Source of the DNA: Botryllus schlosseri
Taxonomy: Eukaryota
Direction of reading: 5' to 3'
DNA length: 64,000 nucleotides
NCBI GenBank assembly: GCA_051294905.1
Contig: CM119372.1
Coordinates: 31,064,001-31,128,000 of the forward strand
Both the position numbers and the translations under genes were made by a program. This document shows positions 11,073 through 62,726 of the stretch, piece after piece. The number at the start of each line of letters is the position of its first letter. The stretch's first letter is position 1. The notes below the pieces were generated by a model. The model did no database searches, was not told the origin of the DNA, and saw only the letters and a program-made list of their open reading frames with translations.

Positions 11073-13832
11073 AGTAGTGATATGGGATTCGTTTCGTGCA
11101 GGCCAATCAAATTACGCCACGTCGCCCTAATTGCCACGCCTATATGATTCCCATTGCCGCACCTAACGCGTGTTTGTGAATGTGAATTTGTTTTCAATTG
11201 ATTTATATGCGTGTTTATATCTGCAATGACGCCCATTGCAACGCCTAGATATTCTAATGTTTTGTGAATTTCAATACCGATTTTCCATGTGTATTTAGCA
11301 ATATGTATTGAATAACTTGCTTCCGAGAAATAAATAACATTCATTATACGTTAGATGATTAAATTCCGAGACTTTATAATAATTTGCTTCCGAAAAATAA
11401 ACATCATCACTAATTAATTAATATAAAATGCTATTTTGAGCGCTGCGACTTGATAATATTAATCCCTACGCTTCTGATGCATGATTTTTTTTTGTGATAA
11501 GGAGCTTGGTAACATTCAGAGTCTGCAACGATTGTTTGGATATACATTATAGCAATACCCCACTAAAGTATAGGCGGTTATATTACTCTATTGGTCAGAG
11601 ATAACTCATCCGTCCATATTTATAAACTTGGTTTTATCTGAAGTAGAATTTCAGCGTCGTTATTTGTTATAAGCCGAGAAATGTACCTTCGCACAATTTT
11701 TACAGGCGGTCTCACACACTTTGCTGCGTCTGAAGTAAAATTTCAGCGTCGTTGTTTGCTATAAGCCGGGAAATTAGAGTCGCTGCTTCGCACCATTTTA
11801 CAGGCAGTCTCACACACTTTGCTGCATCTGAGCTTCCTACTAATACATGCATAATTTTTGCATGACGAGAATAGGGTAATACGGTCAATAAACGCCGGAG
11901 GCGAGTCATTTAAACCTTGTCGCTAGATAATACCGCTTTCGGCTACAACAAAGTTGCCCTGCAACAAAAAATAGAAGCCCTAATGATCATGCAGAGGAAA
12001 GTTCAATTATACATCGAATTATTCGAATAGACTATCTACATTGTGTAAGTATGAAGTGAAATAGAACGGAGTTCACGCAAAAGTTGCTATTGATCATAGA
12101 CCTAGCTTGCTTTCAGAGCTGGAAACTAAATGCATATGGAAATTTACCTAGGTTTTCCCCACACGCATCAAATGTAGGCCTACTCAAGTGTTTATGAGGT
12201 GGCGAATAGTAGGTTGTTGGCATGCAAGGACGTCACATAGAATTGTGGAGTTTTCTGTAAACTATAATCCAGTGATCTATTTTCAATCACTATATTTTTC
12301 AATAATCTAAACTAAGTACTGTTAGTATGCAAACCCTAGGAAAGTATCCTCTGATAAAAGCAGGAGTAATTTGTTATCTGTGAAATAAATAGATGGTGCG
12401 CAATATGAGCGGTGCTGCGATGACTGACAAATACTTTGAAATAATGTATAAAAGTAGCGATTTCGAACTACGTAAAAAGTTAGTCCAGCTCACGCATTTT
12501 CCATTTTCAAAAGTCAAAATACGACATTTTTTGTAAAATGAATACTAATTTTAATAAAAAATAGGAAAAAAAGAGCGAAAAATTACATTTTATCCCGGAA
12601 CGCAACAAGAAAAATCGTATGAATTTGTAAACTACTTATTCATGACATAATATTAATTCTACTTGTACACTTTTTCACATTTTATAACACTTTTAGTAGT
12701 ACTTAACAGTTTCAGTTTTAAATAAAATTCAGAATATAAACTAATCGAAAAATTCGATAACCAATTTCGCGTAGGCTATGCATACAAATGAGGAACGTTA
12801 CATCAACGCGTGTTAACTAGTTGTATTATGTAGCTTGTAATTCATGCAAGTAAGTCGGACAAATTCGTCGCATGAACACGACTCTATGGACATAAAGAAA
12901 TGAAAATTTTGTAAAGTAGATATTTTTCGGTATGCTAAATTCGGCTACGCGGTGCTAGTCTTCTTGGCCGCATGAAATAGGATGTTTTAGCTTCAACCTC
13001 AACGCATTAGCACACCGAATTTAAATATAGGCGATAAATAATATACAGTAGCTCCAATTTTAATGAAAAAATAAAAATAAAAAAGCGCGAAAAAATGCAT
13101 TTATCCTGGAACGCACCAAGAAAAACCGTATGAATTTGTAAAGTAGTTAGAAAACTACACTATTCCGCTACACTAAAGACTTTGACAATCCGGATTTTGT
13201 ATGGTGTATACTGTATACTAATTTTACATTGCGGAGTATTCAGTAAAGTTTAATCCAGTGATTCTCCATCTATTTTCAATCACGATCCTCTTATTTGTCT
13301 AGGCTTCGAACCCCACACCCAGTACGTTTTATGGGGATTAATATTTTCAGAGTCAAGTACATGGTATCGAGACTTCATGAAACTTACTTGCAAATAGTTA
13401 CTTCTACCCTAATTTAAAAGGTTTCTCAGATATCGTTACAATGGAACTGGGTTGAGCGAGCGGTTAAGGCGTTGGACTTAAGTTTCAATGATCAGGTGTT
13501 CACGTGGGTTCGAACCCCACACCCAGTACGTTTTACGGGGATTAACATTTTAGATTCAAATATAGCGTATCGAGTACTTTTTCCCAACTGTAATAAAAAC
13601 TTTTAGACTCCGGATTTTGTGTAGTAGGCTATATACTAATTTACAATACCGCATTTGTAATTCGTGCAAGTACAGGAATATCATAGTTCTTGTAACAAAG
13701 TTGTCTGCGCACAATATATGTTAATCATAAGTCCTACACATTCATGATTTCGTCCTAGTTTGAGTTTTAGAAAATATTATACCGATATCGCGGCATCTTT
13801 TAAAAACAAAACCATGATCAATGCTTGAGAGA
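11073..13832 (+). repeat. Left 2,760-bp inverted arm
   Basis: Reverse complement of 19944-22703. Paired coordinates sum to 33776 at both ends and at the mirrored ORFs (11712..11909 / 21867..22064; 11344 / 22432), so there is no net indel. About 8 substitutions seen by eye. Confidence 0.97.
13446..13528 (+). tRNA. tRNA-Leu(TAA) gene or pseudogene in the left arm
   Basis: 83 nt. Acceptor stem ACTGGGT/ACCCAGT plus discriminator A. Anticodon arm TTGGA-CTTAAGT-TTCAA. Long variable arm. T arm GTGGG-TTCGAAC-CCCAC, then a TTTT run. D-stem mispaired (AGC/GGC), so function is uncertain. Confidence 0.85.
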
Positions 13833-14501
13833 CTAGGTTTTAGACTACTTTATCGTTACTTGACAGTTTCAGTTTTAGATAAAATTTGGTAAGACTTTAA
13901 ATTTTAAAGTAGTTTGAGCTTACGTTTGTATCACCTTGACAAGTAACATTATCAGACATTAAAATGATATTATCACCTAATACAGAAGTTAACACACGTC
14001 AATGTGCTTCGGAATTCACGAGAAATTGCTTACTAAGAGAAGTATATTCTTGTATACACAATAGTGGAGAGAATCTTTAAAATGTAGTAAGCAGGCCGAT
14101 GGGTATTCGTTGAGTTGTATAAGCATAAAAACATTCCCGCGCGTCTTAGTATTAGGTGGTAGGGTTAGAAAAAGTTTAGGTTTAGGAGCGCGCGGGAATG
14201 TTTTTATGCTTATACAACTCAACGAATACCCATCGGCCTGCTTACTACATTTTAAAGATTCTCTCCACTATTGTGTATACAAGAATATACTTCTCTTAGT
14301 AAGCAATTTCTCGTGAATTCCGAAGCACATTGACGTGTGTTAACTTCTGTATTAGGTGATAATATCATTTTAATGTCTGATAATGTTACTTGTCAAGGTG
14401 ATACAAACGTAAGCTCAAACTACTTTAAAATTTAAAGTCTTACCAAATTTTATCTAAAACTGAAACTGTCAAGTAACGATAAAGTAGTCTAAAACCTAGT
14501 C
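13831..14501. repeat. Perfect palindrome: 313-bp arms (13831-14143, 14189-14501) around a 45-bp TTAGG-rich spacer
   Basis: Arms are exact reverse complements by eye (coordinate sum 28332). Spacer is TCTTAGTATTAGGTGGTAGGGTTAGAAAAAGTTTAGGTTTAGGAG. Confidence 0.97.
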
Positions 14502-15111
14502 ACTTTTTACGTGGAGGGAGTACATAGCGAAGTACTTGTACATTTTGGAGTACTCAAGTATAGATTTGGCCTGCTTGCGCTATACTTAATGAATCATTCC
14601 TGCGCAATAAACACTTGAGTAGTTGGTGCGTGTAGACAAAAACCTACTTGAGTACTTTAAAGAAGTACATATACTTCTCTGCTTAACATCTCTGAACGGT
14701 AGAAGTGGAGATATAGTCTACAAACACATTCAGTTAGTTACTTACTTTGTAATCGCTATTGCATAAGTAAAAAGTTAGTATTCAGGGGTCTATTTTTTGT
14801 TTAATACTGAAACAGTCTTGAAGTAGAAACGATCCTATATCACAAACATTCGAGTATTTTCTGTATGTAGGGAAAACCTACTTGAGTACTCAGTACTTCT
14901 CTACTCATCGTCTCTGAACGCTAGAGGTGGAGATAGTCTACAAACATTTACTTACTCACTTTGAAATCGCTACTTGTACTTCTATTCGAGAAGAATTGCT
15001 CGACGTTGAATACCATCCGAGAGCGTTTATGATGCTACTTTTACATCATAGAATATAGAGTTAAAAAGTAAATAATTTTATGATAATCTACATCATCAAG
15101 CTGAAAAGAGG

Positions 15112-18100
15112 ATGTACCATCAATTAGTACTTACGGATCATGATGAAGTGAAAATTCCTTATGGGCTCTATCACCAAACTATGACTGCATTGGACATCAC
15201 TAATATCGCGAATTCTCTTATTCGCCAATCTCACGTGTATGAGTTAGAATTTCGTCAATGTCATCTCAATGAAAACCTCGTCCAGATTCTATTGGATAAA
15301 ATTCGCGGATTTGAATATGGGGTAAACGCCTTCGCACATTCCGCTCGTAGTCATTGATCATTATAAATTCACGTTCAATTTAAGTATATGTTATCCGTAA
15401 ATATTGAGATACAGTTTTATCGTTATCGCATTGTTCTGTATTGCTAATGTGTTAAAGGCGCAAATTGGTGGTATCGCAGCGAACAATGCCCATTTGCTAC
15501 TGGTATAGGCATTAGTCTCGATAGCCTTACTAGATAGACTATAGTCAGAGTTGATCAGTGTTAGGCTGTTCATAGATCATTTAGCGTTTTATGCGTTAAG
15601 TTTTGCGCTCGTTCAGGTCGAAATAAGAAAACTCAGCGTTACAGCACACAACGACATTGAAAAACTCATCCCATTAATCTGCGAGCTGATGAAGGAGTGT
15701 GCTTCGACGGAGCTCAATCTGCAAGAAAGTGGTGGATCCGATGATTTTCTGATTATTTTGAGTAAACTTATCCAGCACCATCAGGAATTGGTGATGGAAA
15801 AAGCTAGGCGCTAATCTAGTATAGAGCCTCTCGAAGTGATATTTCCTAATACCTCATTTCCGTAGGTGAAATTGAAAAACCTCGATCTCAGCTACAGGGA
15901 GAACATTAACTTTACGCAACTCGGGACTATTATTTCGAGCGATCTAACATATTTGTCAGTTGTGAACTCGCGCTTGCAGTCAACAGATTTCATTGCTATG
16001 CAGCTCAAAAACATTAAGGTCTGCGCGATTATTGCTGGGTACAGTTGTTAATGATCACATTCTGTATGAGCGGCTGTGTAGAGATGGATGAGGGAAATTC
16101 TAGTTTAATCTTAGCCAGTGTTGGGATCAAGTCACTACCTTCGAGTCACGAGTCATCTCGAGTCATTGCAGATTTTGACTCGAGTCAAGTCAAGTCAATC
16201 GATTTTCAAAAGTGACTCGAGTCAAGTCAAGTCACTCGTTTTTTGGAGGTGACTCGAGTCAAGTCGAGTCAAGTCAAGTCAAGTCACGAGTCAAGTCACA
16301 ATTCAAGTCAAATTGAATTTTCGATGTATGAGTGATGATTCAAAGTCATTACACTTTGCTAGCTGTGTGAAAGACAGATTAATTGATCAATGCTGATCAT
16401 TTATCTTGAATCAAATAACGAATATCTAGTTAAATATACCTGCGAAAAGACGTTGTATCACTCACGCACACGTAGAACTGTTAATAAAATACGTGAGTAA
16501 CTGTACAGTCACATGCTACAATCAGTTATTATCAGCCAAAATATAGGACATAATCAACATCTATACATCCGTGAGTAAATAAACGCCCAAACTATATTTG
16601 TTTGACTTAAATCATACATAAAGGTTGGTAAAGGTGAGCACTGCGCAACGTAAGCATTGATCCGTCTAAGAAACAGAGACACATTGATATTTAGAGTAAT
16701 CTTCTACTACTACTACTACTACTAGTACTACGACAACGCAAGCTGTGATACTTTAGTTTGCGGTCTATTTATTTGTGATCTAACAATCGAGGATCAGTGT
16801 ATCGTACGATCAGTGAATGACTGGCTGCTCTCACAAAGTGACACCGGCGTATCTCGAACAATCCGAACATACACAAGATACAGTGATTTATTCGACACCG
16901 TTTACTTGATGACTTGAAATTGACTCGTAAATTTTGCTCCGAGTCACGAGTCAATGCGCATTTTTAAAGCTTCGAGTCAAGTCAAGTCAAGTCATTTTTC
17001 CAAAGTGACTCGAGTCAAGTCAAGTCATACGAAAAAGTTGACTCGAGTCTGACTCGAGTCAAGTCAAGACTCGAGTCATCCCAACACTGATCTTAGCACA
17101 TTTAGCCTATATTATGACGTGAGTGACTAAACAACATTTTTTGCTGTTATAAGTTTGAATTTTTTATGCCTGATCATTGCTGATCGTAAATTTACAGTTT
17201 CCGATATTTTTAGCTCCAATATCTTGACATTAGTTACAATCAGCTGGATGAAGAGTGTATGATCGCGCTGCCTGCCTTACTTTGTAAAGACAAAGCGGTT
17301 ACTCTTATCATGAAAGGATGTGGCCTTACACCCGAAGAAATTCGCGCTTTTGAAAGTTTTGCTGATATCGGGGTACTTGATCGTTTCTATAGTTTTGTGG
17401 ATCATTTTGAAATAAATTGGTGGATTTATAGGTTGAAAGCCTTGATCTGAGTTACAATACCGATATGGAACCGGCGGGCTTGAAAGAAATTGGATGCTTC
17501 GTGAGAAAGCATTACACGAAAACAGTTCGACTTTCAGCTTGCGAATTGGATGAAGACTCACTAATATCGTTAAATAATGGTCTCGGAATTTATGAGGTGA
17601 TCATTTGAACTAGATCTGTTTTGTTTTCTAACTGAAATATTCAATCACAGTGTAATGCTTATGTGAGTTTTAGTCATATTCAAGCATGACATTTCATTGA
17701 TCGATAGAATTTTCATCATCAATAAAGTGTTTCTGATCACGAGCTTCATTATCTTCTTCAGTGTTGAATAAGTTTTTGCTATTAGGAGTAGAAATCGCAA
17801 AAAAAAATGCTCAACCGTCGGTAAATAATATTATGACTAATCTATTACAGCCTTCGAGCCGTTTGTAGTCTCGTAAACTATCTGAACATCACACCATGTT
17901 TTAGCTGCATTCGCTGGATTTAAGTAGAAATCCTGGCATATCATCCTGCTACAAAACAGTAACTAAAGTCCTGTGCAATTCCCGTGTGGAAGAATTTAAT
18001 CTGTGTAATTGCAAGATGCTTTCCATGCAAATCAGGAATCTGAGCGAAGAGATGGGAAAACGATGCGGTACGGTAAGATCTTTCTGCTCAATCATAGATC

Positions 18101-18364
18101 CCAATGTAGCGATGTAGTTCGTTTCTTTACTTTTAAATTGATATTAATCTCGTATTATTCAATTAACAGCTAAAGGCAATCGACCTCAGTGATAGCGATA
18201 GAACGAGAATCGATGAGAAATACGTGAATTCCATTCAGAGCTTCGTGAGATATAATCCTGAATGCCGCAAAGTCAAACTAGTCTTACCGCGCTTCAGTGG
18301 GGAAGATATGAAGACCTTGAGAAAACAACTGTTCTCACCCAGTAAGGGGATATTTTCCGAATAA
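15112..18364 (+). CDS. Spliced LRR-only protein of NLR / ribonuclease-inhibitor type, about 407 aa. Exons 15112-15321, 15617-15790, 15866-16018, 17214-17372, 17432-17596, 17905-18072, 18170-18364
   Basis: Seven GT-AG, phase-0 exons of 153-210 nt join into an open frame with LxxLDLSxN repeats (LKNLDLSYRE, LQYLDISYNQL, VESLDLSYNT, LHSLDLSRNP, LKAIDLSDSD). Stop TAA at 18362-18364. An in-frame TAA at 15073 lies upstream of the ATG, and there is no NACHT exon inside the element. Confidence 0.8.
16116..17089. mobile_element. hAT-type MITE (CAGTGTTGGGAT TIR, GACTCGAGTCAAGTCAA subterminal arrays) in intron 3 of the LRR gene
   Basis: TIR CAGTGTTGGGAT / ATCCCAACACTG. 8-bp TSD ATCTTAGC at 16108-16115 and 17090-17097. 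Confidence 0.9.
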
Positions 18365-18462
18365 ATATGTATCTAGATGAGAATTAGGAGATTTCTCCTT
18401 TACTTGATAATGCTTTGCGTGAGCGCTACGGCCTGATAAGATTATAGGTAGGTAGGCCTACA

Positions 18463-18564
18463 TATTAGCAGAAGTTAAGACATGTCAATGTAACTTTATT
18501 AGCAGAAGTTAAGACATGTCAATGTAACTTTATTAGCAGAAGTTAAGACATGTCAATGTAACTT
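18463..18564. repeat. Tandem repeat, 3 x 34 bp (TATTAGCAGAAGTTAAGACATGTCAATGTAACTT)
   Basis: Identical units start at 18463, 18497 and 18531, with no spacers. Lies between the convergent 3' ends of the two cargo genes. Confidence 0.95.
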
Positions 18565-19007
18565 TCCGCATTTCTGTCTATATCGATTCGGAATCCACCA
18601 GAAATTGGTTACTATGTGAGCGAAGTATTCTTGCAAAGCAACAGCACAGGCAAATTTATATTTGTTCGGTATAGACAATATTATAGAATATGATATTTCC
18701 ATTTGGAGAGAAGACGAAATTTGATGTCGTAATGTAGGTTATTTTACACTATCGTAAATCTCTGTCGCTATAATGCTCGTAATCGAATCAAATTTGACCT
18801 GCAACGTATTCTGGGTAACCCTAACAAATTACTTACGTAGCTGTAGAAATTTGAAAAATTAAAAGTATAAAGAAGGTTTCCATATGGGGCAATCCTTCGA
18901 GTATTCTCAGAAGAAACTGTATAGATCTTACAGTAAAATGGATGCGATTAAACGATGAAGGATTTTATTCTTAAAATATTACATGAGACAAAACATGCGA
19001 ACATCCA

Positions 19008-19792
19008 TTATCTTGATAATGCCATTGCAATAGATTTCAGTCCGATTCCGACAAACACGAGTCCCTTCCAAACTTTATTGTAGTCGAAAGCGGTATTATC
19101 AAAGAATTCTACAAAGCCGTCCTGCAATAAAAATAGAAGCCTTAATGATCATACGGAGGAAAGTTATCGTGTCGTAGAATATAAATTGGGAACCGAATTA
19201 GAAGGTAAAGCTGAATTTCATCATCGAGAGGTGATATGGGCTCTGGAGAGCAGATACACTATATGTCTCATGCTAAAGATAATTTGTAAATCCTAAGCAA
19301 GGCATGTAAATCACCTACCCATCCTCCATTTCGCACTATCCACTTTCGTCTTTTGCTAGCAATGTAATTCCCAACTGTCTGTATGATAGCTTCTATATGC
19401 TCCCCGCGATGTTCAACATCGTTCTTGCGAGCAAGAATGCTACCGAGCACAAAAAGGGAGACAATCCTTCCCCAATTTTCTTTGGTATCTTTGAAAATTT
19501 CATCAGCTATCATCAGGAACATTCGCTCATCGGGTAAATATTCTTTATATTTTTTATTGACTTCAACATCACTACAGCGGAGACGTTTGGAGACTGCGTT
19601 TAGGACTGTTCGATATCGCTCGAACATTTCATCCCCAACTTGACGTAAGGTTCTCTCTGCTTTCGTATTTACCTTAACGCATGAGCCGTCGAGTTCGTAC
19701 ATGATAAAATTCCTGGTCAAGGAATATGCTTCGGATATAATTTCATCCTTTTCTTCAGTGATCGAAGGTGCTGATACTCGTGATAATTCCAT
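19008..19792 (-). CDS. Bcl-2 family apoptosis regulator, 195 aa. Exons 19792-19319 and 19121-19008
   Basis: BH4-like LTRNFIMYEL, BH3 LRQVGDEM, BH1 EIFKDTKENWGRIVSLFVLG. BH2 WIVRNGGW|DGFVEFF is split by a 197-bp phase-0 GT-AG intron at the family-conserved position after GGW. Hydrophobic tail VWKGLVFVGIGLKSIAMALSR*. No stops or frameshifts. Confidence 0.93.
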
Positions 19793-19943
19793 GGTTTGAG
19801 GAGAATAGCGAGTCAAAGCTTATTTCGAGATCTAAGCTACTTTGAAAATGAGGATCCTAGGATTTGCTTAATTTTCATCTATATCGTACAATGCGTTTTC
19901 GCGTTCCAGAATGACTTATGTCAATGAAAAATAGCAAAAATGA

Positions 19944-22703
19944 TCTCTCAAGCATTGATCATGGTTTTGTTTTTAAAAGATGCCGCGATGTCGGTATAAT
20001 ATTTTCTAAAACTCAAACTAGGACGAAATCATGAATGTGTAGGACTTATGATTAACATATATTGTGCGCAGACAACTTTGTTACAAGAACTATGATATTC
20101 CTGTACTTGCACGAATTACAAATGCGGTATTGTAAATTAGTATATAGCCTACTACACAAAATCCGGAGTCTAAAAGTTTTTATTACAGTTGAGAAAAAGT
20201 ACTCGATACGCTATATTTGAATCTAAAATGTTAATCCCCGTAAAACGTACTGGGTGTGGGGTTCGAACCCACGTGAACACCTGATCATTGAAACTTAAGT
20301 CCAACGCCTTAACCGCTCGCTCAACCCAGTTCCATTGTAACGATATCTGAGAAACCTTTTAAATTAGGGTAGAAGTAACTATTTGCAAGTAAGTTTCATG
20401 AAGTCTCGATACCATGTACTTGACTCTGAAAATATTAATCCCCATAAAACGTACTGGGTGTGGGGTTCGAAGCCTAGACAAATAAGAGGATCGTGATTGA
20501 AAATAGATGGAGAATCACTGGATTAAACTTTACTGAATACTCCGCAATGTAAAATTAGTATACAGTATACACCATACAAAATCCGGATTGTCAAAGTCTT
20601 TAGTGTAGCGGAATAGTGTAGTTTTCTAACTACTTTACAAATTCATACGGTTTTTCTTGGTGCGTTCCAGGATAAATGCATTTTTTCGCGCTTTTTTATT
20701 TTTATTTTTTCATTAAAATTGGAGCTACTGTATATTATTTATCGCCTATATTTAAATTCGGTGTGCTAATGCGTTGAGGTTGAAGCTAAAACATCATATT
20801 TCATGCGGCCAAGAAGACTAGCACCGCGTAGCCGAATTTAGCATACCGAAAAATATCTACTTTACAAAATTTTCATTTCTTTATGTCCATAGAGTCGTGT
20901 TCATGCGACGAATTTGTCCGACTTACTTGCATGAATTACAAGCTACATAATACAACTAGTTAACACGCGTTGATGTAACGTTCCTCATTTGTATGCATAG
21001 CCTACGCGAAATTGGTTATAGAATTTTTCGATTAGTTTATATTCTGAATTTTATTTAAAACTGAAACTGTTAAGTACTACTAAAAGTGTTATAAAATGTG
21101 AAAAAGTGTACAAGTAGAATTAATATTATGTCATGAATAAGTAGTTTACAAATTCATACGATTTTTCTTGTTGCGTTCCGGGATAAAATGTAATTTTTCG
21201 CTCTTTTTTTCCTATTTTTTATTAAAATTAGTATTCATTTTACAAAAAATGTCGTGTTTTGACTTTTGAAAATGGAAAATGCGTGAGCTGGACTAACTTT
21301 TTACGTAGTTCGAAATCGCTACTTTTATACATTATTTCAAAGTATTTGTCAGTCATCGCAGCACCGCTCATATTGCGCACCATCTATTTATTTCACAGAT
21401 AACAAATTACTCCTGCTTTTATCAGAGGATACTTTCCTAGGGTTTGCATACTAACAGTACTTAGTTTAGATTATTGAAAAATATAGTGATTGAAAATAGA
21501 TCACTGGATTATAGTTTACAGAAAACTCCACAATTCTATGTGACGTCCTTGCATGCCAACAACCTACTATTCGCCACCTCATAAACACTTGAGTAGGCCT
21601 ACATTTGATGCGTGTGGGGAAAACCTAGGTAAATTTCCATATGCATTTAGTTTCCAGCTCTGAAAGCAAGCTAGGTCTATGATCAATAGCAACTTTTGCG
21701 TGAACTCCGTTCTATTTCACTTCATACTTACACAATGTAGATAGTCTATTCGAATAATTCGATGTATAATTGAACTTTCCTCTGCATGATCATTAGGGCT
21801 TCTATTTTTTGTTGCAGGGCAACTTTGTTGTAGCCGAAAGCGGTATTATCTAGCGACAAGGTTTAAATGACTCGCCTCCGGCGTTTATTGACCGTATTAC
21901 CCTATTCTCGTCATGCAAAAATTATGCATGTATTAGTAGGAAGCTCAGATGCAGCAAAGTGTGTGAGACTGCCTGTAAAATGGTGCGAAGCAGCGACTCT
22001 AATTTCCCGGCTTATAGCAAACAACGACGCTGAAATTTTACTTCAGACGCAGCAAAGTGTGTGAGACCGCCTGTAAAAATTGTGCGAAGGTACATTTCTC
22101 GGCTTATAACAAATAACGACGCTGAAATTCTACTTCAGATAAAACCAAGTTTATAAATATGGACGGATGAGTTATCTCTGACCAATAGAGTAATATAACC
22201 GCCTATACTTTAGTGGGGTATTGCTATAATGTATATCCAAACAATCGTTGCAGACTCTGAATGTTACCAAGCTCCTTATCACAAAAAAAAATCATGCATC
22301 AGAAGCGTAGGGATTAATATTATCAAGTCGCAGCGCTCAAAATAGCATTTTATATTAATTAATTAGTGATGATGTTTATTTTTCGGAAGCAAATTATTAT
22401 AAAGTCTCGGAATTTAATCATCTAACGTATAATGAATGTTATTTATTTCTCGGAAGCAAGTTATTCAATACATATTGCTAAATACACATGGAAAATCGGT
22501 ATTGAAATTCACAAAACATTAGAATATCTAGGCGTTGCAATGGGCGTCATTGCAGATATAAACACGCATATAAATCAATTGAAAACAAATTCACATTCAC
22601 AAACACGTGTTAGGTGCGGCAATGGGCGTCATATAGGCGTGGCAATTAGGGCGACGTGGCGTAATTTGATTGGCCTGCACGAAACGAATCCCATATCACT
22701 ACT
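19944..22703 (-). repeat. Right 2,760-bp inverted arm
   Basis: Reverse complement of 11073-13832. Starts TCTCTCAAGCATTGATC (19944) and ends CATATCACTACT. Confidence 0.97.
20248..20330 (-). tRNA. tRNA-Leu(TAA) gene or pseudogene in the right arm (mirror copy)
   Basis: Reverse complement of 13446-13528. Confidence 0.85.
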
Positions 22704-25700
22704 CATCGCGATACTTAATCGTTCAATATGCGGTCATTTTACCCGCGTTGGTGACCACTGATGTAGGACGTACAAACCCTTAGTAAAGATTGCACGTGAA
22801 CATCACTTACATTGGAACGCCGCTTTGTCTTGCTCATGTTTGTGATCGGCAATGTTTTCTCACAAAATGCATGTAGACCCGGGCCGCAAGCTCCATTACA
22901 TGTAAGACAGAAACTGTCTGCGGGCGGCCCCAAAAACTGGCTGAGCTGACGCTTCAAGTGGTTAAAATAAATCATTATAAGCCATCAAAAAGAAATACTA
23001 GGAAGACTTTTGCAGCTCACTCACCGACAATTCCAGTTTGGCGCGCATCTGGCACGTGGTCAAATCCATGTCGCACCTGGATTCGTATCAACGCCGGCCT
23101 AAGGACATGCTGCTTGATGGTGCAGAGCGGCAGTTCGGCTCGTAAATAATAGTATTATTCGTGTGACATGAACGTGACTTAATATTGTATCATCACGTTC
23201 CCAACATTCTCACATCCACCAGCTCTTCAGCTAACTCTAGCTGCGTAAGCGTAGGGCATATAAAAATCGTATGCGCCAGGCGAGTTCAGGCTCGAAGTAG
23301 AAGAATATATCGGTATCTCAGTATAAACAGTAATTTGTCATTGCAAACGGCATGATTTTGTTACAATGCATTGAATGGTGACGAAACCGTGGTACGTAGG
23401 CTACACTTCATTGATCATGAGTCGTATGACTGATATAGTAGGCTATACGAAAGAGTGCAGTTTGTAAGATTCTAAACCTCTACTAAGAATAACGAGAACC
23501 ACAATAACATGAAGGGTTATTTGGAACATTTTCAAAATACGATTTTTGTATCACAATTTCGAAGGTCGTTACAGATACAATAAACCGGAATCAACACAAC
23601 TCTCACTTGGTCGTGTGTCTCGTTACTCTCTGTAGAGGCTTTCGATGGCGATGGAAGTGGAAAGTTACGGTTATACTGGTGTATGTGAACAAAGATACCG
23701 GGCGGGGTCTATGCTTTTCGCCACGTACCCGACCGCGTAATATTGTAATCCAGCCCATCAGCCTAATTCAAGGGCAGATGATTTTTTCGCTTCTTCACCT
23801 AAGCCAAACATGGGTCACGCACGCACACAGGCTTATGTTGACGAGTAACAAGGCAACGAGGTCTGTATCAGAGCAATGCCGTTACTGTTGGCTGTAAGTA
23901 GGGGATGCTGGGCAAAATCGGGTACGCTAGTGATTCGAATATTATGCTTCGACTCGAATAGACTGTACAATCGTGTCTTTTCTATAACTCTGGTCATTAT
24001 ACGCCCCTTGATGTTGCACTCTACTAGCATTAGACCAAAATGTTTCGTCAAAGCAATTTAAAGCAAATATATCAAACATCACAACTATAGGGTTGTGATT
24101 AAAACAAGAATCTATTTAAAACAAACTTGTTCAAAACAACGCCCTTTTTTGAAACATGTTTAAAAAAATCTAATCCATGACGTCTCGCATTGGTATTCAC
24201 AATTGAAAATACAGGTTAAATATAGCTCCTTTGACGAAATAGGCTTCCAACCCCTGTCATATACGGACCAAAAATATCTTTAACCAGGACTACATCGTCG
24301 TGCAGCATTTGTACGGTCGGCGCCTCGGCGGTCTTCATGATCAGAGCATTCATTCCGTACAAATGATCTATATCTGCTTACTGTTAGCTGTTGAACCCAC
24401 TATTTCGAGCAAACTTCCCATATCGTGTATACATCGGCTATATCGGGTGGCAATCGTCGTCCTTAGGCTCATACAGCATGTTTTTTGAAAGTATTTACAC
24501 AATTATAGCATAATTAAACAACTTAGAAAAACATTTTTTGAACGCCTTTGTTTAAAACACTGCTTAAAACATGTTTTAAGCAATTCGTTTTAAACAACCA
24601 TTTGTTTTAAATGCGACCCTAATCACAACGAAGCAAATGCTACTTCTCCCTCGCGAGCACAGTGAAAAGTCGATAAACAATACCTCTAATATCTTCTATT
24701 GCAGCGGTTCGAAATTCGGCGGGCGCGCCTTCCTTGGAGGGGGAACGGGGCATGGAAACATCAGGAGGGCGCGAAGCCGTGGTTAACTGTAAAAAAATTT
24801 CGCGGTCTGCGCGATTTATCCCCAGTTCATAGCTTTTGCTTTGTCCCATCCACAGTCATAACCTTCCATGCCATCATACTATCTGTTGTGATTGCTAGCA
24901 TTCTGGCTACATATAATGATGTGACGATAATGAGGCGCGAGATATTTTACTATCATAAAGGATGGCGTGTCTGAAAAAGTTTGAGAACCACTACTCAATT
25001 AAAATATTTTGCAGTCCGAAACAGGATGTCAAATGATTTGTAATTCTTTATAATTTATGCTAATTCATGAAATAAGTTTGGGCCCCCTTCGAGCTCGGCC
25101 CCCCTTAATTGGGAGATTTGAGGTGGGGCAGTTACGGCCCTGACTATAGGACTACCAATTATGCTGCTTTTAGCCGGCTAAGCGGTATGCATCTCGGCGT
25201 ATATTCAACCGTGAGTCACGTGTTGCACATCTAGCTATCATAGGGTTACCATACGTCCTCTTTTAAGATGATATGTCCTCTTTTTTGATTTTTTTAAAAG
25301 TGACCACGGAGGACGCCCAAATGTCTTCTTTTTCGGGATTTTGTTTATTTTTTGAGGATTTTGGTTACATAAAGGGCCAAATTCGACTAATATGCATTAA
25401 GTCAGCACTGTAGGAACGCTACGGCGGCTATTTCGGGAGCTGGACCGGAAAGTTAACGTTTTTTTTTCAGTCAACCACCTGTTAATGTGAAAGAAAAACT
25501 GTATTTTCCGGGAGTTGAGCCTCTTTTTCTTTTTCAGTCAAGCGACCACGAAGTGGGAAAAATTTACCATTTTTTCAGGATTTTCCTCCGGTTTTGAAAG
25601 TTTTAAATATCTATTTATATCTATAGCTACTGCTCGTTCAACTGGATGGTTAGGGCACATTGCATTGAAACAACAGTGACGTAACGTTAGCAGTCTATAC

Positions 25701-26275: not shown

Positions 26276-28015
26276 TAGGGATGGTGTGAACGTGAGGTTC
26301 ACGTTCGCTTTGGTAGGTTTTGCACTGTGAACCTTTTTGATGTGTTACAATTTTCCCTTCCTTGTAACATCTTTGGTTGAAATTTATTGCATTTCAACTG
26401 CGGGCCACTCAATGCATGGCGCTGGCCGCATAAAAAAATCAACACTAAACGAGCATGCAGCTTGACCATCTCAAATATTTACTTACTTTGCTCGAAGTAT
26501 CCAGTTATCCGTTTGTGAATACTTGGCGACTCACTGCTGTGAGCTTGACCCGCAATCACACAGCATCAAGAGAAAATTACACTACATGTAATCAGCGAAT
26601 GATGCTTATTCAACCAATCAATGAAATTGATATCGTTGTCTGATGTAAACAAATCTTGCAGGCGTACGGGTCAATCTTCACTTCATATCTTTATTGTTTC
26701 ATGAAAACCAATCCGTGCTATTGGGGTGTTGGCTGCAGCTGTACAGCTTTTTAATGGGGTAATATCGGTAGCAAGTATAGAAACCCGTTTTACACTCTGC
26801 TCAATATCAACGTAGCAATACTGAGACGCCGAATACATGGTCCAATCTGGCCTAGACTGTTACGGCGTAAGCTTATATTTCCTTGCAAGTTCTCGTCGAA
26901 ATTGTTGGCAAAGCGACAGAAGATACTGATTTTATGGGATTGTTATATCATTTGATTGCCTAGTTGATACATTTGGTCACGTTTAAAACATCAATATGTA
27001 CTTCAGCATTGTGGCATTATGTGGCCCTAGTCGTCGTTTATAGATATCGTCAACAATAGAGGTCTCAAACTCAAATGTACTCGTGGGCCAATTTCCTAGT
27101 TTTTGATGACGCCGCGGGCCGCAGCATCAATAATAGGGATTTTCGATGCATAATTTTCAGGTAGGCCTTATTTGACGGACCTTGTATACAGGCATTCCAC
27201 AAACATCGTGGAAATGTAATTTACTATTGTATTATTTCCTCTTGACATGGAAAAAAATCACGTTTTGAAATATTTGAATAAAATTGATTTTGTGTCGGGC
27301 CTAATTTCTGAGAGGATGCATCATGACACCGTCAAACTGTCGGGTTATTATATTGCAGCTGGTGGAACTGTGACGTGCTACAATTTTATGTAGAATATTT
27401 TGTAATGTACTAAACATTGATTTGATATTAGAGCATTTGAGCGGTGTGGCCTAATCCCGGTTTTGATATAGTCGTGATGAGTATAAGCTATTGTTATTGC
27501 CAAAGTCAAATTAAATCAGCGTTAGATTTTGCCTTCGATTATTATTGGAACATATCAATAACAACTTAAATATAATCATTATTGAGCCATTGTAATAGTA
27601 CTGTTTCTCAACATTTTTAGCTATCGTACCCCTTGTGCTTCCAATGAGATTTCTCGTAGCCCCTGTCTATTTCAAACAAAATTGTTTAAATTTCAGTGAT
27701 TTTTATAGTAGTTATAGAATGAACTTTAAGTTCTTATATCAAAAAGGATATTTCACTTGAACAGATGTTGATTACTTGAAATTCCAAAAATTCCGTCGCA
27801 GGCCGCACAAAAAGCTCTCGCGGAACGCGTGTTTGAGACCTCTGGTCAACAAAGTAGTCTCTACATAGGCTATCATTTCACTGAAATGTTGGGTTGCAAT
27901 CAGCAATATGACGTCACGTGACGTCAAGAGGTTTACGTTCGCGTTCACACAGAACCTTTTAAAAAGGTTCGCGTTCACACGAGCGTGAATATTTCAGAGG
28001 TTCACACCATCCCTA
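26276..28015. mobile_element. hAT-type element (TAGGGATGGTGTGAAC TIR) with a nested insertion
   Basis: TSD ATCCACAA (26268-26275, 28016-28023). Related fragments at about 868-970, 32940-33796 and 52021-52755. Confidence 0.85.
27057..27844. mobile_element. Nested hAT-type MITE (YAGAGGTCTCAAAC TIR)
   Basis: TSD GTCAACAA (27049-27056, 27845-27852). Confidence 0.85.
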
Positions 28016-31562: not shown

Positions 31563-34500
31563 GTTTAGGATGTATAGATTTGTATACACAAGCACATCCA
31601 TCGCGTTAACACTTCAAATAACTTTTCGTTTAAAGTGAATGTTGCACAATCGTGTCAAACCTTTTAGGGTGATCACTTCCGTGTACCATTCAACCTGTTA
31701 CTAAACTTGCATTTTATATCTGGTTAATCTGATTTTGCTGACTGTCGCCTTCAACAGCGACGGTCAGGTTTCCAAGTCAATTATAGTCATTGTAGCAACA
31801 GAGTGTACGGAAATCATTTCTAACGTGAGTGTTACATGCTTGAGCATGAATTTAAAAAGCTGAAGTTACATTTCATTTCTGTGATGTTCCAAATCCTTAC
31901 TTTGGTGAATATAGTTGTAGCTTAGTTACAATCTTAAAGTCGATATCGGCTAGACTCCAATCAGCAACCCATCCGTACCGGAGTGAAGCAGCGAAACGTT
32001 GTTCTACGTTAATTGCGACCGCAATCTACCACAGATAAAACAATTCATGTCATCCACAACCAAAAGACCTCGATGATTATCTCGCTCAACAATGCATAAT
32101 GGATAGTAATCGATACACTCACAACGCTGCTATTAACATATTAGTACGATTACACAATACACATGCACGACAACATGACAACGTAGGGAATTAGCCTACA
32201 TTCATGGTCGTTCGTCGGAAAGCTGACGCATGTAATAGGTTTACCTCATTCCAAACGAATGCCGCGTTATATATATAGATTGCTAACATAGAAATGAATT
32301 TGACGAATTTAGATTGTTGTATTGGGAGGTTTTATATTATATCTTGTCGTTGGTATGATATCATCATGCGATATTTTGATAGGCCTCTAGCGTTGTTTAA
32401 AGATATACAAACATTAAAAAAAACGATTTATATCAAACGTAGCATATAGAACATGGGGTTCATAAACGTTTTTTGACTGCTGATTCTTCTGCTATACACA
32501 TGGATGTGCGGCGCACCCCGGCAAAATGGGGTTACAAAGTCAATGTCCGGTTGTCTTTAAAGTCTCATTTTACGGTTGGGAGCCTAACGAAACCCTGATA
32601 GCCATAATGCCAGTAAGCTGTAACTATTTCTCGCGTGGTACATATATATGAGTCGAAATCCTTGTGGTAGAAAATGTCCACGGTGCCAGGAACATATAGT
32701 TACCCATGTAGCCACACCCGCGTATACCTGGGGGTGCGCGTACCCCAGTTTGAGAGCCCCTGCTATAAGATATCGACCCTACTCATATAGTCTTAGGAAA
32801 TGGATGCAACATATGTATGGGTATATAGACATATGCATGGATATAAAATATATCATACTATAATATCGACGGCAGGGGTTGCTAAAGTATAGGTCGCGAC
32901 TAGGGTGGTGAGAACCCCTGATTGGTTCTGGTTCTCTTTGAAAAGTTCTGTGTGAACGCAAACGTGAACCTATGACGTCACGTGACGCCATATTGCTAAT
33001 TCAAACCCTAAGTTTCCGTATAGTAATATATTAATATACATGATAATTATAGCGGCGGCTCACGCCTTATTATACAACAATGCTGAAGAACATGCTTACT
33101 TTTTAAACTTCATCTAATGTATGAACTGGAACAATCAAATGCTATGACAGTTCCACAAAATTAGTTTTCCGTCGCTTTGCCAACATTGTCGACGAAGACT
33201 GGGCAAGACTGAACATTTGCGAGTGAAACACCGGTCTCTATACTTGTTCCAGGTAATATCTCAAAAAAAGTTATCCATTAGCCAAGACCCCAATCCGACG
33301 GATTTGGTTTTTATGATACAATAAGGATATCAGATCAAGATAGATCCCGTACGCCTGATAATTTTTTTTCATTCGACTTGGACGCATTCTGCATATCAAT
33401 TATGTTGATGTAAATAATTGACTGGTTGACCATAAGCACAAATCACTGACTTCCTACATGCAGTTTGTTTCGTTCTTGCTATTGTGTGATTGCGGGAAAA
33501 GCTCACAGCAGAGAGTCACTAAAGAATCACCAACGTAAAGCTGATTATTCCAAGCAAACTGTCAAGCAAATAATTTTTGATATAGACAAGGTGGATGCTC
33601 GTTTAGTGGTGAATTTCTGTACATGCTGTCAGCTTCATGCGCAGAGTGGTCCGAAGTTAAAATGCAATGAATTTCAACCAAATACGGTAATAATGACGTG
33701 AAAGATTTTAATAGATGAAAAAAGGTTCACAGTGCAGAATCCACCAAGGGTCGTTGACGAACGCGAACGTCAACTTCACGTTCACACCATCCTTAGTCGT
33801 GACCTAAACATGGGCTCGTGAAGGTAATAACATTGGGTCGCGACGACACCTAAGCATTCTTTTAATTTCTGGCGACGAAGCATTTTCTTCGCGCTTTGCG
33901 CTATTACCTGCGCAATATTTGTGAGCGATCGAGGACTCTGTGTGGGGTCGACCTTGGTATTACCAAAATTGGTTTGAATTCATCATAAGTTTGTCAGACA
34001 TTGATTTATCTGGAAAACACCGTCGGATACCGTTCGTATGCTATACTGTAGGGGTCTGTAACAAGCGGGTACGGGACTATGTGATATAGGTATTTCGAGG
34101 CCAACCAATTTCGCACCGGAAAACACGGAGACATGAAGTTTAGTCCATCACATAGCTTGTAAAGTGCGGTGCCACCTAGATCAGCGGTGATGAAACCTTG
34201 GCAAAAATGACCGTCATTGATTAGTCAAAACGATGGATATTAATATGTACGGCCGTCGAATTGGCACAGTTCGTTCTTAAATTCTGAGTATACAGTAGTA
34301 AAAATGCAGTACAAATGCAACCCGCAGAGGAAAATAATGCACCCAAATTTCGAATAGCATGCGACAGAAATGTTTCAGAGCTGCGTTGCGTACAACGGTC
34401 GTCTGCGCGTTATATACGCCATACATGCCCGCACCAACGTGTAGCATACTAATAATAAAAATGCATTCTTTGTGATGTGTGAGGCATGGGTCGCAAGATG

Positions 34501-37500
34501 CCACTAAACTCACATTTTGGTCGCGCCCAATAAAGTTTAAGGACCATTGCTTTAAGAAACGGGTACAAAATTAATATTGAAAATCGACGAAGAAAGAATA
34601 CAATATATCTTCATCATAATATTATTATAATGACCATGATCTTATTTCCTATAAGCTTCAATAAATCTCAGACGAGCTATTCAAAATTTTATTTTGTGAA
34701 TAACGCAGTGGTACGTAACCGGTGTTCCACGGAACACTAGGGGTTCCGCGGATATCAAAAGACACACTCAGTTAACACACATGATTTGTCCGTCTTGGCC
34801 ATAATGGTTTGCAGGCCCGATCAGTAGTCGCATTGTGTCGGTTATCATGGTACGTCACGTACAGTGTCGTCCACAGGGAGGTTAGGGTTCAAATTCGACA
34901 CCCCGTTCTTCTAAAATGATAATTCTATCCCAACATTTATATGCTCATTTGGAATTAAGCAATTGGTATCACGCTGTTGCGTTTTGACTGAGCAATACGA
35001 TGGCACTTTCAAAGGTGAAGCCTCGCATTTCTGAACTAGTATCTGAAAACGAACCGTAGTAGTCACACTGAAATAAATATTCATTATAAAGTTTTCGTTT
35101 TGTGTGAAATTATATTTTAATTGTTTTGCATTTTCAACACTCTGTTGATTCACATGTCACTCAGTGCACCAGTAATCTATAGGAATGTATTAGATGTGTA
35201 GTTAGTGGTGGACTTCAGTTTTGTGACCCAGCGAAAATTGGGAGTTCCGCGAAGGCTTGAAGATTAGCGCAAGGGTTCTGCGAGTCAGTAAAGGTTAAAA
35301 ACCACTGGTATAGCGATATAGGCCTACCCATCGAAGCGGATAAAGGAAATTTGAATAAGCTTGAAACACAAGCTAGTTCCGTTCAATCTATGCGAAAGAG
35401 TGTGGATATGGGTTTTATTGTTCCGAGCTGCAAAATAACTGGCTAGCATGACGCTTCACTTGATTGCAGCAACTCCTTATGTGTCAAGTAGAACTTGAGC
35501 GTCAGTGTTTTCCGAATACATAATGGTAACCCTTCGGAAGCGATTCTCCCAATCGCTTCATCAGGCCTTTGTGGATGTTTGAAGGCCGTTCCATACAGGC
35601 GCACCTCACCGCGTGAGGGATCTACGTGTTCTAGTCAGTAGCAGCCAGTAGCAGTGAACAGATCAAGTGGAAGAATAATTGTAGATTCGAATTTTCCAAT
35701 TTCAAGTCAGACACCATGGTGATGCGTATCAGTATGACTATGTTTATCATACTGATGCTGATGTTGATGGTGGTGATGATGATGACCTGATCTCTTATTC
35801 ATCAATCCGCTGTCAAGATACCACCAGATATCAAAATCCCTTTTATAGTCTGCAAATAGAATGTCATCAGTATCAACCACGGTTCCGCATACATGCCTTC
35901 ACATCATACAGCATTGAGCTGCAATTAAATCAGGTATAAGCAGAGGTAGTCGCCAGTCAGTAACGGAGAACCATGCACATTTTCGGAGTACTCAAGTAGG
36001 TTTTGCCTACCTGCACTACTTACTCCAGTACATATGCTTCCGGACCAGGCGTCGCCAAGCCCTGGTAAGGCGTGTTACAAGTGATGATATGATTGTTCAT
36101 GACACGCCATATGATTTCACACTTACGTTGTATCAAAACCACGTTTGTTGCTATCAGTGAAATAGAAGTTTTCAAATGGAAAATCATGACGCCACCGGGA
36201 GGCGAACCAATCACCTATGATTTTGTTGGCAAGCCGATATGCGACACTACGGCCGTAATGCGGTTTATGATTACTTCTAAACCAATATGTTAAACTTTTC
36301 TCGAATATACTTTCCCTAGTTTTCTTTTTAAAGTTCGTCCAAATGTAGTCAAAACCTATGTGATAAGGTGTAACGTACCCAGCGGTTCCAAAACTTTTTA
36401 TAGCATTATAGTATTTTATAGTATCATTCATATGTCTTGACCAGGGACTCACGCAACAATTATACGCTTCGCAGTTACGTGAAACATGAATCATAACAAA
36501 ACATCAATGATTCAATCATCCTCTGAAGTCTTTAGGATGCTTCAATCTAGGGGTGTGTAACATGTGCGAGCGGGACTGTTAGGAAAAGGCATTTTTGCAA
36601 TAAATCAAGCAAATATGTCGTGCATTAGACGATAGCTCTGACGCGGTGCTGATCAAAATTTAAACCATTTGCGACCCATACTTTAAGCACCACTGGCGTT
36701 ACAGATTATGTCGTCAGTTTCAGAGAAGCGGTAGTTAGCGATTTCAAAAGAACATTGTTATTTAAGTTTTTCGTTGATAATTATCGGATTATCCATGTAC
36801 CAATCAAGATTAATCCGAGAATTATCAACGAAAAACTCAAATACCTCCGCGTCTACTAGTTGGAATTGAGTCAAATTTTTTTTTGCATAGTCTTTGAAGA
36901 CAGCTCAACAATTTCACGGGGTTGACAGAAAAATTTTAAATTTTTTTTTTAATTTTCTAATAAGTTGAAAATTTTAATTGGATCTGGGGAGTCCTATACG
37001 TGTTAAAATTGAACCAAATTTGGTGTACAGCGTTTTTTTAGGGTAACCTGACAATTTAATCAGTATATGGCTGGAATCCGGAAAAAAGTTATTTTTGAAC
37101 AGCTCCAATGTACATGCAATGGCATGGAGTAAATTGCGTTCTCGTGCGGATATGACGTCATCGACAGACGACAGGAAATAATTATTACGTCACAGGACTT
37201 TTCATACCCCAACAAAATGATGGTTTCTTGCGACGGCTACAACCGAACCATAGTTGCCGGAGCCAGAGCTGGGGCTGAAGCAGTGATATCAATGAGCTCC
37301 GGAGCTTGGAGCCGGAGCTAATTCATCATAGAAGAAAGCTCCGAAGCCGGAGCTGGAGCAGTTTAAAATTTACGACTGCTCCAAAGCCCTGGGAGCTGAT
37401 TACATTGTAGAGTAGAACAATTTTGAGATTAACTCAAAGTTCTATATCTCCGATCATTTGTTCTGGATACACAATTGAATCAAACAGAAATACTGTCACT

Positions 37501-38768: not shown

Positions 38769-39681
38769 CAGTGTTGGGATAGAGTCACTACCTTCGAGTC
38801 ACGAGTCATTTCGAGTCATTGCACATTTTGACTCGAGTCAAGTCAAGTCACTCTATTTTTGATGGTGACTCGAGTCAAGTCGGGTCAAGTCAAGTCAAGT
38901 CACGAGTCAAGTCACTAGCCGAGTCAAGTTGAATTTTCGAAGTACGAGACATAATTTGAAGTCATTGCATTATGTTAACTGTCTTAAATACAGATGAAGT
39001 CCCCATTTATTCCGAATCGAGGAAGGAATAACAAGTTGATTATACACGCAAAAGGCGCTAACGCATTCGTTAAATTGCTAAAGTATACGCAAGTGGCGGT
39101 AGCCCCAGTCTATATAATGATCAGCCAAAATACTGGATAAAATACGAAACCTGAGAAAGTTGAAAAAGGATATGGCGCAATACCCGAATCATCTACATAT
39201 CCATGATATACAATTATAAACCTATAAACGATATTTGTTCGATTTAAGTCATACAAGAGGGTTGGTTTAGGGGAGCACTGGGCACAGTGAGCAGTTTCTA
39301 GAAGAGAGATGTATTGCTAGTATATTACTTTACTACTTATTTACGAAAACGTAAGCTGTAAGCTCCGATCACAGCGTTTTGCGATCAAATTATTTGTGAC
39401 ATAACAATGGAGGTTCGGTAAAACGCACAATCAATGAGTTATCGGTTGCTCTCACAGGTCACACCAGCGTATCGATAACAATCAGAACTTATACAAGATA
39501 CATTGATTTAGTCGACGTCGATTACTTGATGACTTGAAATTGACTCGTGAATTTTCCTTCGAGTCACGAGTCAATCCGCATTTCTGAAACGTCGAGTCAA
39601 GTCGAGTCAAGTCATTTTTGCAAAGTGACTCGAGTCAAGTCAATTCATACGAGAAAAGTGACTCGAGTCATCCCAACACTA
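38769..39681. mobile_element. hAT-type MITE, same family as 16116-17089
   Basis: CAGTGTTGGGAT...ATCCCAACACT(A). TSD AGAGCCAA (38761-38768, 39682-39689). Same GACTCGAGTC arrays. A related element follows at about 39736-40239. Confidence 0.9.
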
Positions 39682-46900: not shown

Positions 46901-47155
46901 GTTGACCCTTCGTAGATTGCGGGATCTGACGTGCGATTTACGCCGTGACGACCTTTAAAGTAATCCGCGAAGTCTACTCTTCGCATTTTGGGATGAACTA
47001 CAAGACTGGGTTCATTGAGCTGTTCGGGCCTGTAGTCATCAAGGATGCTGACAGTCGTATTTTCCTTGGTGCGGTTGTTGACGGTCTCTACCAGTTTCTC
47101 ATAGTTGATATCTGCGACAAAATTTGACTCATTCATACGAGAAAAGGTGATATCT
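40982..47155 (-). CDS. NACHT-LRR (NLR-like) gene, possibly damaged at the 3' end. NACHT exon about 47155-45654; further candidate exons 44617-44283, 43577-43473, 43304-43143, 41956-41870, 41603-41525, 41274-41194, 41131-40982
   Basis: Walker A IIASAGSGKTTL, Walker B VLLILDGLDQ, sensor IVVTSR, IPVFL motif, winged-helix FCHQSMQEFLAASY. Phase-1 join AAAG|GT (45654) to CAG|AT (44617) is in frame with LRR-like FNFCNCNMNDE and VENVDLRQNSL. The 5' end and distal exons are less certain. Confidence 0.85.
44980..45215. repeat. Degenerate (CCTAAC/TAACCC)-like low-complexity tract in an NLR intron, flanked by short inverted repeats
   Basis: C/A-skewed TAACC, CCTAAC motifs. Flanks AATAGAGAGTCATTC (about 44948) and GAATGACTCTGTATT (about 45240). 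Confidence 0.55.
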
Positions 47156-47163
47156 CTGTAGTA

Positions 47164-48008
47164 CAGCGGGGCATGGACCGTAGCAGGATTGGATATCCGG
47201 CCCAACCGGCAGGATCTTCTCATTTATGGCCGGGGCCGGATTAGAGCCGGATCAGCACTTCTCAGGGATGAGCGGATTTGAAATTTCAATGTCCTAATTC
47301 AATCCAAATCCGAAGCTTCAAATCCTAATCCTAGTCCTAATCCATAACTTTAGTATATTAAACTCCCAATCCTAATCCGATATAATCGTAGAATTCCTTT
47401 TAGAACTTAGCCTACATCTTTTGCCTATAATTCCCTAAAAAGAAAGAAAACGCATATTGAGTGCCAAAGTACATGAAGTAACTTTGGTAGGACGAAAATC
47501 TTTTTCGCCATTCACCACAGGACATCAATCGTACTGAACATCGGTATATGCAATCCAAATCCTAATCCATTTTCAAAAACATCTGAAATCCTTTCCAATC
47601 CTAATCCGGCAAAATTTCACAAATCCGGTTTTCCCAGATCCTAATCATAATCCATGGTCAACTCGGGCACTTTTCCTGATACGGCCGGAATCGTATCGGA
47701 ACTAGATCTCTACTTTCACCTTGGAATCAATAGTTACATTAAACAGCATTTCATGTAAATAAACCGCATGTTAGGACAAAGTTGCCATCATTACTTCAGA
47801 TAAGGGTTAGGCTTGATCTTTGAATTTTTAAATTTCTGTTTGTATTGTTTCAATCAATATTCAATACCAACCTGTGATTATGGCCGGAGTTGTCGGACCT
47901 GACCACGGATATTTCTAGGATCCGGCCTAGGAGTCGGACCGCAGTCGGACCAGGGAATTAAAAAACAGGATCGGAATCGGATCAGAGAATTTGTCAATCC
48001 GTCCGGCG
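47164..48008. mobile_element. CCGGA-rich MITE abutting the 5' edge of the NACHT exon, with a nested AATCC-type MITE (about 47263-47666)
   Basis: Similar to about 51590-52008 (GCATGGACCG...GAGAATTTGTC). Boundaries approximate. Confidence 0.65.
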
Positions 48009-62688: not shown

Positions 62689-62726
62689 TGTTTACAAGAC
62701 GAGAGACTAAAATAACGCACAATTTT

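Follow-up and report, generated by a model that had tools for sequence, protein, structure and literature searches.

The 64,000-nucleotide stretch of Botryllus schlosseri DNA analysed here (GenBank assembly GCA_051294905.1, contig CM119372.1, positions 31,064,001 to 31,128,000 of the forward strand; hereafter the window) includes a leucine-rich repeat (LRR) gene carried in an 11.6-kb element with Maverick/Polinton ends, i.e. AGTAGT and a 6-bp target duplication. The element also carries a Bcl-2-family open reading frame (ORF), which is convergent with the LRR gene. The features of the element are the following (window coordinates; MITE, miniature inverted-repeat transposable element):

11067..11072: left 6-bp target-site duplication, CATCGC
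11073..13832, + strand: left terminal inverted repeat, 2760 bp; begins AGTAGT; 8 mismatches against the right repeat
13828..14504: central hairpin with 316-bp arms and a 45-nt loop
15099..15100, + strand: phase-1 acceptor AG, homologous to that of the host gene described below; found in both element subfamilies
15112..15321, + strand: LRR exon 1 from the ATG, 70 codons; the host gene has a Thr codon in place of this ATG
15617..15790, + strand: LRR exon 2, 58 codons
15866..16018, + strand: LRR exon 3, 51 codons
16116..17089: MITE that entered intron 3 later and is flanked by an 8-bp target duplication; not in the other close copies
17214..17372, + strand: LRR exon 4, 53 codons
17432..17596, + strand: LRR exon 5, 55 codons
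17905..18072, + strand: LRR exon 6, 56 codons; the query for the genome-wide copy search
18170..18364, + strand: LRR exon 7, 64 codons and the stop codon
19268..19792, - strand: Bcl-2-family ORF, 174 amino acids from the ATG in a single open frame (PF00452, E 1.6e-21)
19944..22703, - strand: right terminal inverted repeat, 2760 bp; ends ACTACT
22704..22709: right 6-bp target-site duplication

The LRR ORF consists of seven phase-0 exons that join, by splicing predicted from the sequence, into a stop-free frame of 407 amino acids (ATG at 15112, stop codon ending at 18364), and the six introns between them are all GT..AG in the window copy. An earlier sequence-only reading of this DNA had proposed an uninterrupted LRR protein of about this length from seven phase-0 exons, which is confirmed. 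The exon structure is not due to chance, as diverged copies of the cargo and a host gene on C16 are divided into exons at the same positions. The RI type, a horseshoe solenoid of 28-29-residue repeats set two to an exon, is a tentative assignment based on LRR exon lengths of 51-58 codons and on exon starts of the form LxxLxLxxN/C. Single LRR exons score only under the cut-off against Pfam LRR_1 and LRR_6, a profile of exon 4 finds an LRR protein in PDB at E 8e-6 and ribonuclease inhibitor only at E 0.67, and an exon-5 profile search gave no LRR match. Exon 1, folded as a single exon and not as part of the whole protein, gave a prediction too weak for use (pLDDT 54). The protein databases yielded no spliced LRR product: one search gave no matches at all and a second returned nothing beyond three distant LRR proteins and two gene calls, both single-exon read-throughs. 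The database proteins that match exon 1 are unspliced read-through calls.

The host gene on C16 (L043, C16:8626300-8635800) encodes a NACHT-LRR protein (NLR) and has, in order, a NACHT exon (E 2e-18), LRR-like exons, a linker exon and seven exons that match the cargo. These last seven exons share with the cargo 64% amino acid identity, the same boundaries and phases, and alignable introns. The linker exon (90 amino acids, low-complexity) splits two LRR blocks and ends in a phase-1 donor, and the splice phases suggest that the seven exons are joined to the NACHT in one transcript. Of the 147 places where exon 6 was found in the genome (see below), C16 alone shows a listed NACHT on its strand in the 30 kb upstream (the best 94 of 224 NACHT candidates were considered). 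The C16 NACHT, the post-NACHT exon and the linker exon are each single-copy in the genome; the next NACHT after that of C16 is 28% identical among the best 92 of 198 candidates. It is therefore very likely that a single-copy host NACHT-LRR gene supplied the cargo, its last seven exons having been taken up as genomic DNA together with their introns. Capture of the 3' part of an NLR had been suggested from the window alone, and the parental gene with its upstream NACHT, which that reading proposed to look for, has now been found. The cargo lacks the NACHT, the proximal LRR block and the linker of the C16 gene; it has its own ATG, and is mobile and multi-copy. Judged by these exons, it is NLR-derived but not an NLR.

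There is no NACHT exon with the LRR gene, as had been noted: a tblastn search with the window's own NACHT (45622-47223, outside the element) found no second NACHT in the window and none in the element. The further proposal that the sensor domain was kept without the ATPase holds for the missing NACHT and fails for the sensor region as a whole, as the captured part is only the second of the two host LRR blocks. The NLR to which the window's own NACHT belongs was considered as a parent and rejected (an 11-residue match only, E 0.78).

DNA homology between the window and C16 extends from 15077 to 18428, which places the capture break in the intron before exon 1. The C16 acceptor for exon 1, of phase 1, has its counterpart in the AG at 15099-15100, 11 nt upstream of the ATG at 15112, so that exon 1 was, as predicted, once internal. 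The start codon is a Thr codon in the C16 gene and Met in both element subfamilies, and was probably gained in the element lineage. At the other end, exon 7 of the C16 gene stops a few codons before that of the cargo. The GC donor after exon 2 is common to the C16 gene and subfamily B, while the window copy has GT. An AG at 15050-15051 and an in-frame TAA at 15073, taken by the sequence-only reading as signs of an ancestral exon start, are both present in the window copy; the homologous acceptor is however that at 15100. The interval from 15052 to the ATG is out of frame in 10 of 11 other close copies and has two stops in the eleventh, and by this comparison the 15051 acceptor is an accident of the window copy. 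A phase-0 acceptor at AG 15080-15081, which is found in 6 of the 11 close copies, was likewise rejected as it mismatches the phase-1 donor of the host gene.

The LRR gene, treated previously as a single gene, belongs to a family with well over 100 exon-6 matches. A protein search of the genome with exon 6 gave at least 150 matches (157 candidates) with 98% to 42% identity, five of them with stops; these represent at least 147 places in 82 clusters, and 108 lie in head-to-head pairs. The Bcl-2 search gave at least 150 matches (the best 150 of 419 candidates); all of these copy counts are lower bounds. In two-armed relatives the central hairpin parts two head-to-head LRR genes. The window element is lopsided in that its left arm is without the LRR gene and without Bcl-2. 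Tail-to-tail LRR pairs were also seen, at C12:17225200-17236200 and C2:36230593-36239355.

Two subfamilies of the cargo, A (the window copy, L012, L018 and L020) and B (L039-L041), share about 73% amino acid identity and form two clades with full support; L013 was left out of the comparison owing to a frameshift. In both subfamilies the LRR gene and Bcl-2 lie 1.11-1.24 kb apart; this holds for 17 of the 18 neighbouring pairs that were found. Six of the 12 close copies are complete and open, and the other six show a frameshift, a truncation or the loss of a splice site; all four diverged copies that were fetched are broken.

Bcl-2 is the only ORF of at least 120 amino acids in the element (11073-22703), and no gene for a protein-primed polymerase, integrase, ATPase, protease or capsid protein was found there. 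Because these core genes are absent, the element is a derivative and not an autonomous Maverick. An assembly artefact is ruled out by the 8 differences between the arms, the target duplication and the copies on many contigs. An AGTAGT-type end motif and a 6-bp target duplication are given as hallmarks of Mavericks, the motif being that of vertebrate elements (PMC8097293), and Bcl-2 and IAP homologues are among the genes carried by adintoviruses (PMC8502044); the AGTAGT..ACTACT ends, the 6-bp duplication and the long terminal inverted repeats of the window element, together with the Bcl-2 and IAP genes of its family, thus resemble Mavericks/Polintons (adintoviruses) as described in these two accounts. 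Seven related regions were fetched, and all five in which both ends are visible are mirror images with AGTAGT..ACTACT and 6-bp duplications. They are 14.3-17.6 kb long, except for one of 26.3 kb with a Mutator-type insert, and have arms that are 99.2-99.8% alike, with Bcl-2 in both arms and the LRR gene in none. Two of these five palindromes (on C7 and C11) retain just the last 65 bp of exon 7, from which it follows that they have lost the LRR gene. In the centre of the palindromic element on C14, positions 2527-4302 of L031 encode a Mutator-like transposase (PF20700, E 6e-51).

A 51-bp end motif, common to the window element and to polymerase-encoding elements of this genome, occurs 565 times in the genome (277 + 288), and its reversed control not once. 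The genome contains 144 matches to the Maverick integrase (770 candidates) and 80 to the polymerase (258 candidates), and among the first 100 ends listed, five end pairs enclose a polymerase and an integrase of one family, as judged by eye. These Mavericks were reached via one weak A32 match; genome searches with PF03175 (polymerase) and PF21738 (capsid) were uninformative, the controls being unmatched too. Among the same first 100 ends listed, the 24 bases between AGTAGT and CCAATC vary between elements; the block is mostly identical at the two ends of one element and looks as if built from a few recurring blocks. Only one of the 147 exon-6 places lies within 15 kb of an integrase match, and that integrase is of another family. 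L045 (C1:8321600-8328400), a polymerase-less Maverick derivative, has the same end, 73% identical to that of the window element over 103 bp, followed by BIR, Bcl-2, A32 ATPase and integrase genes with no polymerase between. Seven such Bcl-2-integrase neighbours were counted with 68 of 144 integrase matches and 58 of 80 polymerase matches entered, and one more was seen separately, which makes at least eight. L045 also holds a further frame of 187 amino acids (1224-1787, - strand). The palindromes are probably fold-back derivatives of the Bcl-2-bearing end of L045-like elements.

By its ends and gene content the palindromic element is a non-autonomous derivative of the Maverick/Polinton family, amplified with its LRR and Bcl-2 cargo. 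Unlike Mavericks it lacks polymerase, integrase, ATPase and capsid genes, and most of its relatives are end-to-end mirror images; the LRR cargo contains six introns, in contrast to the conserved Maverick ORFs, for which an intronless structure is described. A search of viral contigs gave 52 pattern matches, none of which was confirmed.

Selection on the cargo was estimated from GY94 fits to an alignment of 405 codons, of which 394 were kept after columns with stops or frameshifts had been removed. Omega (dN/dS) is 0.49 over seven element copies (2dlnL 28.5 versus omega 1), 0.42 between subfamilies A and B (p 5e-8) and 0.44 within B (p 7e-4); Bcl-2 gives 0.51 (p 0.023, four copies). The NG86 estimate of about 0.31 overstates the constraint, the value being 0.42-0.49 once transition bias is modelled. 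Between A and B dN is 0.14-0.17, about half the intron distance of 0.29, and the fixed differences are 51.7 synonymous and 64.3 non-synonymous on 262 and 920 sites, respectively. Of the two explanations offered earlier for the open frame, selection agrees with the omega values and a very recent capture is excluded by the dS of about 0.46 between the subfamilies. Constraint between lineages together with the decay of single insertions is the pattern of transposon genes that are selected during propagation, and we think it likely that the conservation of the LRR protein during the divergence of the element lineages came about through selection at the level of the element.

Element-level selection requires a single capture of A and B. 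Alternatively, the low omega may have been laid down in host genes, with A and B captured separately from paralogues since lost, or subject to sequence exchange with the host gene, and the cargo a neutral passenger now. The A-B dS of 0.46, not far under the 0.53-0.59 that separates the copies from the host gene, would agree with this, as would the neutral look of the young copies and the lack of spliced RNA (both described below). Yet A and B have in common the ATG, the Bcl-2 spacing and a 3' flank that is absent from the host gene, omega is 0.44 also inside B, and no second close host paralogue was found (28% for the next NACHT, best 92 of 198 candidates), and we consider separate capture or exchange quite unlikely.

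Several observations weigh against the main reading as a whole, in which the cargo is selected with the element and acts as a decoy (see below). Young subfamily-A copies have an omega of 0.75, indistinguishable from 1 (p 0.4), and fixed and tip changes do not differ significantly (Fisher p 0.14). LRR-less palindromes are common, two of them with the exon-7 remnant, so the LRR gene is dispensable for movement. A TATA-like motif 5' of the ATG is present in 11 of 11 other A copies and absent from the window copy, and subfamily B is without it at the corresponding place. Examination of RNA junctions, which had been proposed to verify the splicing, revealed no spliced LRR transcript in four shallowly read runs. 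Two raw RNA runs, of which about 6% and 3% was read, show zero depth in the bins of exons 1-3 and a depth of 9 or less over exons 5-7. The 15 joints listed (of 30) include none that fits an LRR intron, and in two more runs, taken by guess to be RNA, contigs pass unspliced across introns 2 and 4. The expression runs carry an organism code that differs from that of the best-matching DNA runs, possibly another species label, and the run index listed no RNA run as containing the sequence.

Capture, amplification and purifying selection beside an anti-death gene suggest, without proving, that the cargo acts as a decoy. Helper Mavericks with the same ends would copy and insert the palindromic element in trans, as the dispersed copies with target duplications imply. 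The LRR gene would be expressed during element replication and not from most resting copies, and the free LRR block would compete with the parental C16 NLR for a ligand or partner, or bind the NLR and hold it shut, so that the cell neither mounts a defence nor dies. Bcl-2, plus the IAP genes in sister elements, would act further down the same path. This role is supported by the company the gene keeps, namely Bcl-2 in the window element, the BIR gene of L045, the three BIRs encoded near a second Maverick end within the window and the Bcl-2/IAP genes of adintoviruses. Taken as a whole, the proposition that the LRR cargo serves as an accessory gene and weakens NLR-triggered defence or death while the element replicates is evenly balanced.

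The same selection data would fit element-level selection for another job, in which the partner of the LRR block is a nuclease, a protein of the helper virus or some other host factor and no damping of the NLR takes place. LRR solenoids are general binding scaffolds, and the 90-residue linker separates the captured block from the NACHT-proximal LRRs, such that it may not contact the NACHT. Against this, the other identified cargo of the element family is anti-death (Bcl-2, BIR), and we regard another job as unlikely.

Selection may instead act at the level of the host, a few copies serving the animal as NLR regulators of the COP/POP kind or as defensive interfering satellites and seeding the rest. 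A trans-acting protein would be hard to select at the level of the single element, and primate single-domain regulators born by exon duplication exist (PMC7555848). The copies examined, however, are either young or in decay (six of the 12 close ones and all four diverged ones are broken or truncated), the LRR gene stays tied to Bcl-2 in mirror-image pairs, and no old copy without element ends was identified, although no systematic search was made; a host function of this kind seems distinctly improbable.

If the LRR gene serves the element as a decoy, its conservation is most easily explained by single-copy bottlenecks, e.g. infection of a new cell, because a trans-acting protein should otherwise be lost easily, and LRR-less palindromes are common. 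A more specific and tentative version, which we hold to be possible but less than probable, is that the palindromes are packaged satellites of an active polintovirus, equipped with an anti-defence set on three levels (an LRR decoy taken from one host NLR, Bcl-2 and IAP), in which single-genome bottlenecks allow selection to keep a trans-acting gene. Under the satellite version the LRR protein would be an inhibitor that is carried by a virus and has true NLR ancestry, the C16 NLR would be a sensor of polintovirus infection in an invertebrate, and an infectious cycle of animal Mavericks would receive indirect support. The cargo bears on two general questions, namely what invertebrate NLRs sense and whether the Mavericks of animals are infectious viruses. 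That the element keeps a single LRR block beside anti-death genes, taken from just one NLR of a large NACHT family, points to a specific receptor and provides a ready test reagent. Purifying selection on the trans-acting cargo of a coreless element is unusual and informative on how such elements spread.

Nematode Mavericks with host protease and kinase cargo (Widen et al. 2023, via PMC11131425) are similar in that host genes were captured and spread; from what is described there, they differ from the present case of an immune-receptor fragment on a coreless palindrome amplified within one genome. Like COPs/POPs (PMC7555848), the cargo is one domain copied out of a signalling protein that may compete with its parent, but COPs/POPs are host genes of CARD/PYD domains and the cargo is a putative LRR inhibitor on a mobile element. 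ORF63 of KSHV (Kaposi's sarcoma-associated herpesvirus) is a viral protein reported to modulate inflammasome activation and was judged an unlikely NLR homologue (PMC3437474), whereas the NLR descent of the cargo is plain in the DNA and its function putative. Pack-MULE and Helitron captures (PMC6431247) are also non-autonomous elements with intron-containing host fragments; they belong to other element classes, and the cargo here is a complete ORF conserved across element lineages. In the available literature, to which most subscription papers and the supplementary gene maps of PMC8502044 did not belong, no report was found of NLR-derived Maverick cargo or of such palindromes. Within that literature, Bcl-2 and IAP on adintoviruses are already known, and NLR-derived LRR cargo on palindromic Maverick derivatives appears to be new.

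The end of another Maverick-type element, with AGTAGT at 61634 and a variant end motif, occupies 61634-64000 of the window and includes an open three-BIR IAP frame (62730-63998, - strand); integrase and polymerase matches lie 5-9 kb past the window end. The host NLR that was rejected as a parent is a separate gene at 43458-47223 (- strand) with its NACHT exon at 45622-47223 and LRR-like exons downstream. ORFs at 36123-36503 and 58992-59456 (both - strand) have no Pfam match over the cut-off; the latter presumably represents the tail of a LINE-type reverse transcriptase, which it resembles. Two inverted repeats at 26276-27036 and 33053-33795, about 6-7 kb apart and 70-79% alike, form an older pair. 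The MITE in intron 3, which from its 8-bp target duplication we take to be hAT-like, is abundant, with a second window copy at 38769-39669 and copies 98-99% identical to that in intron 3 on C3 and C7.

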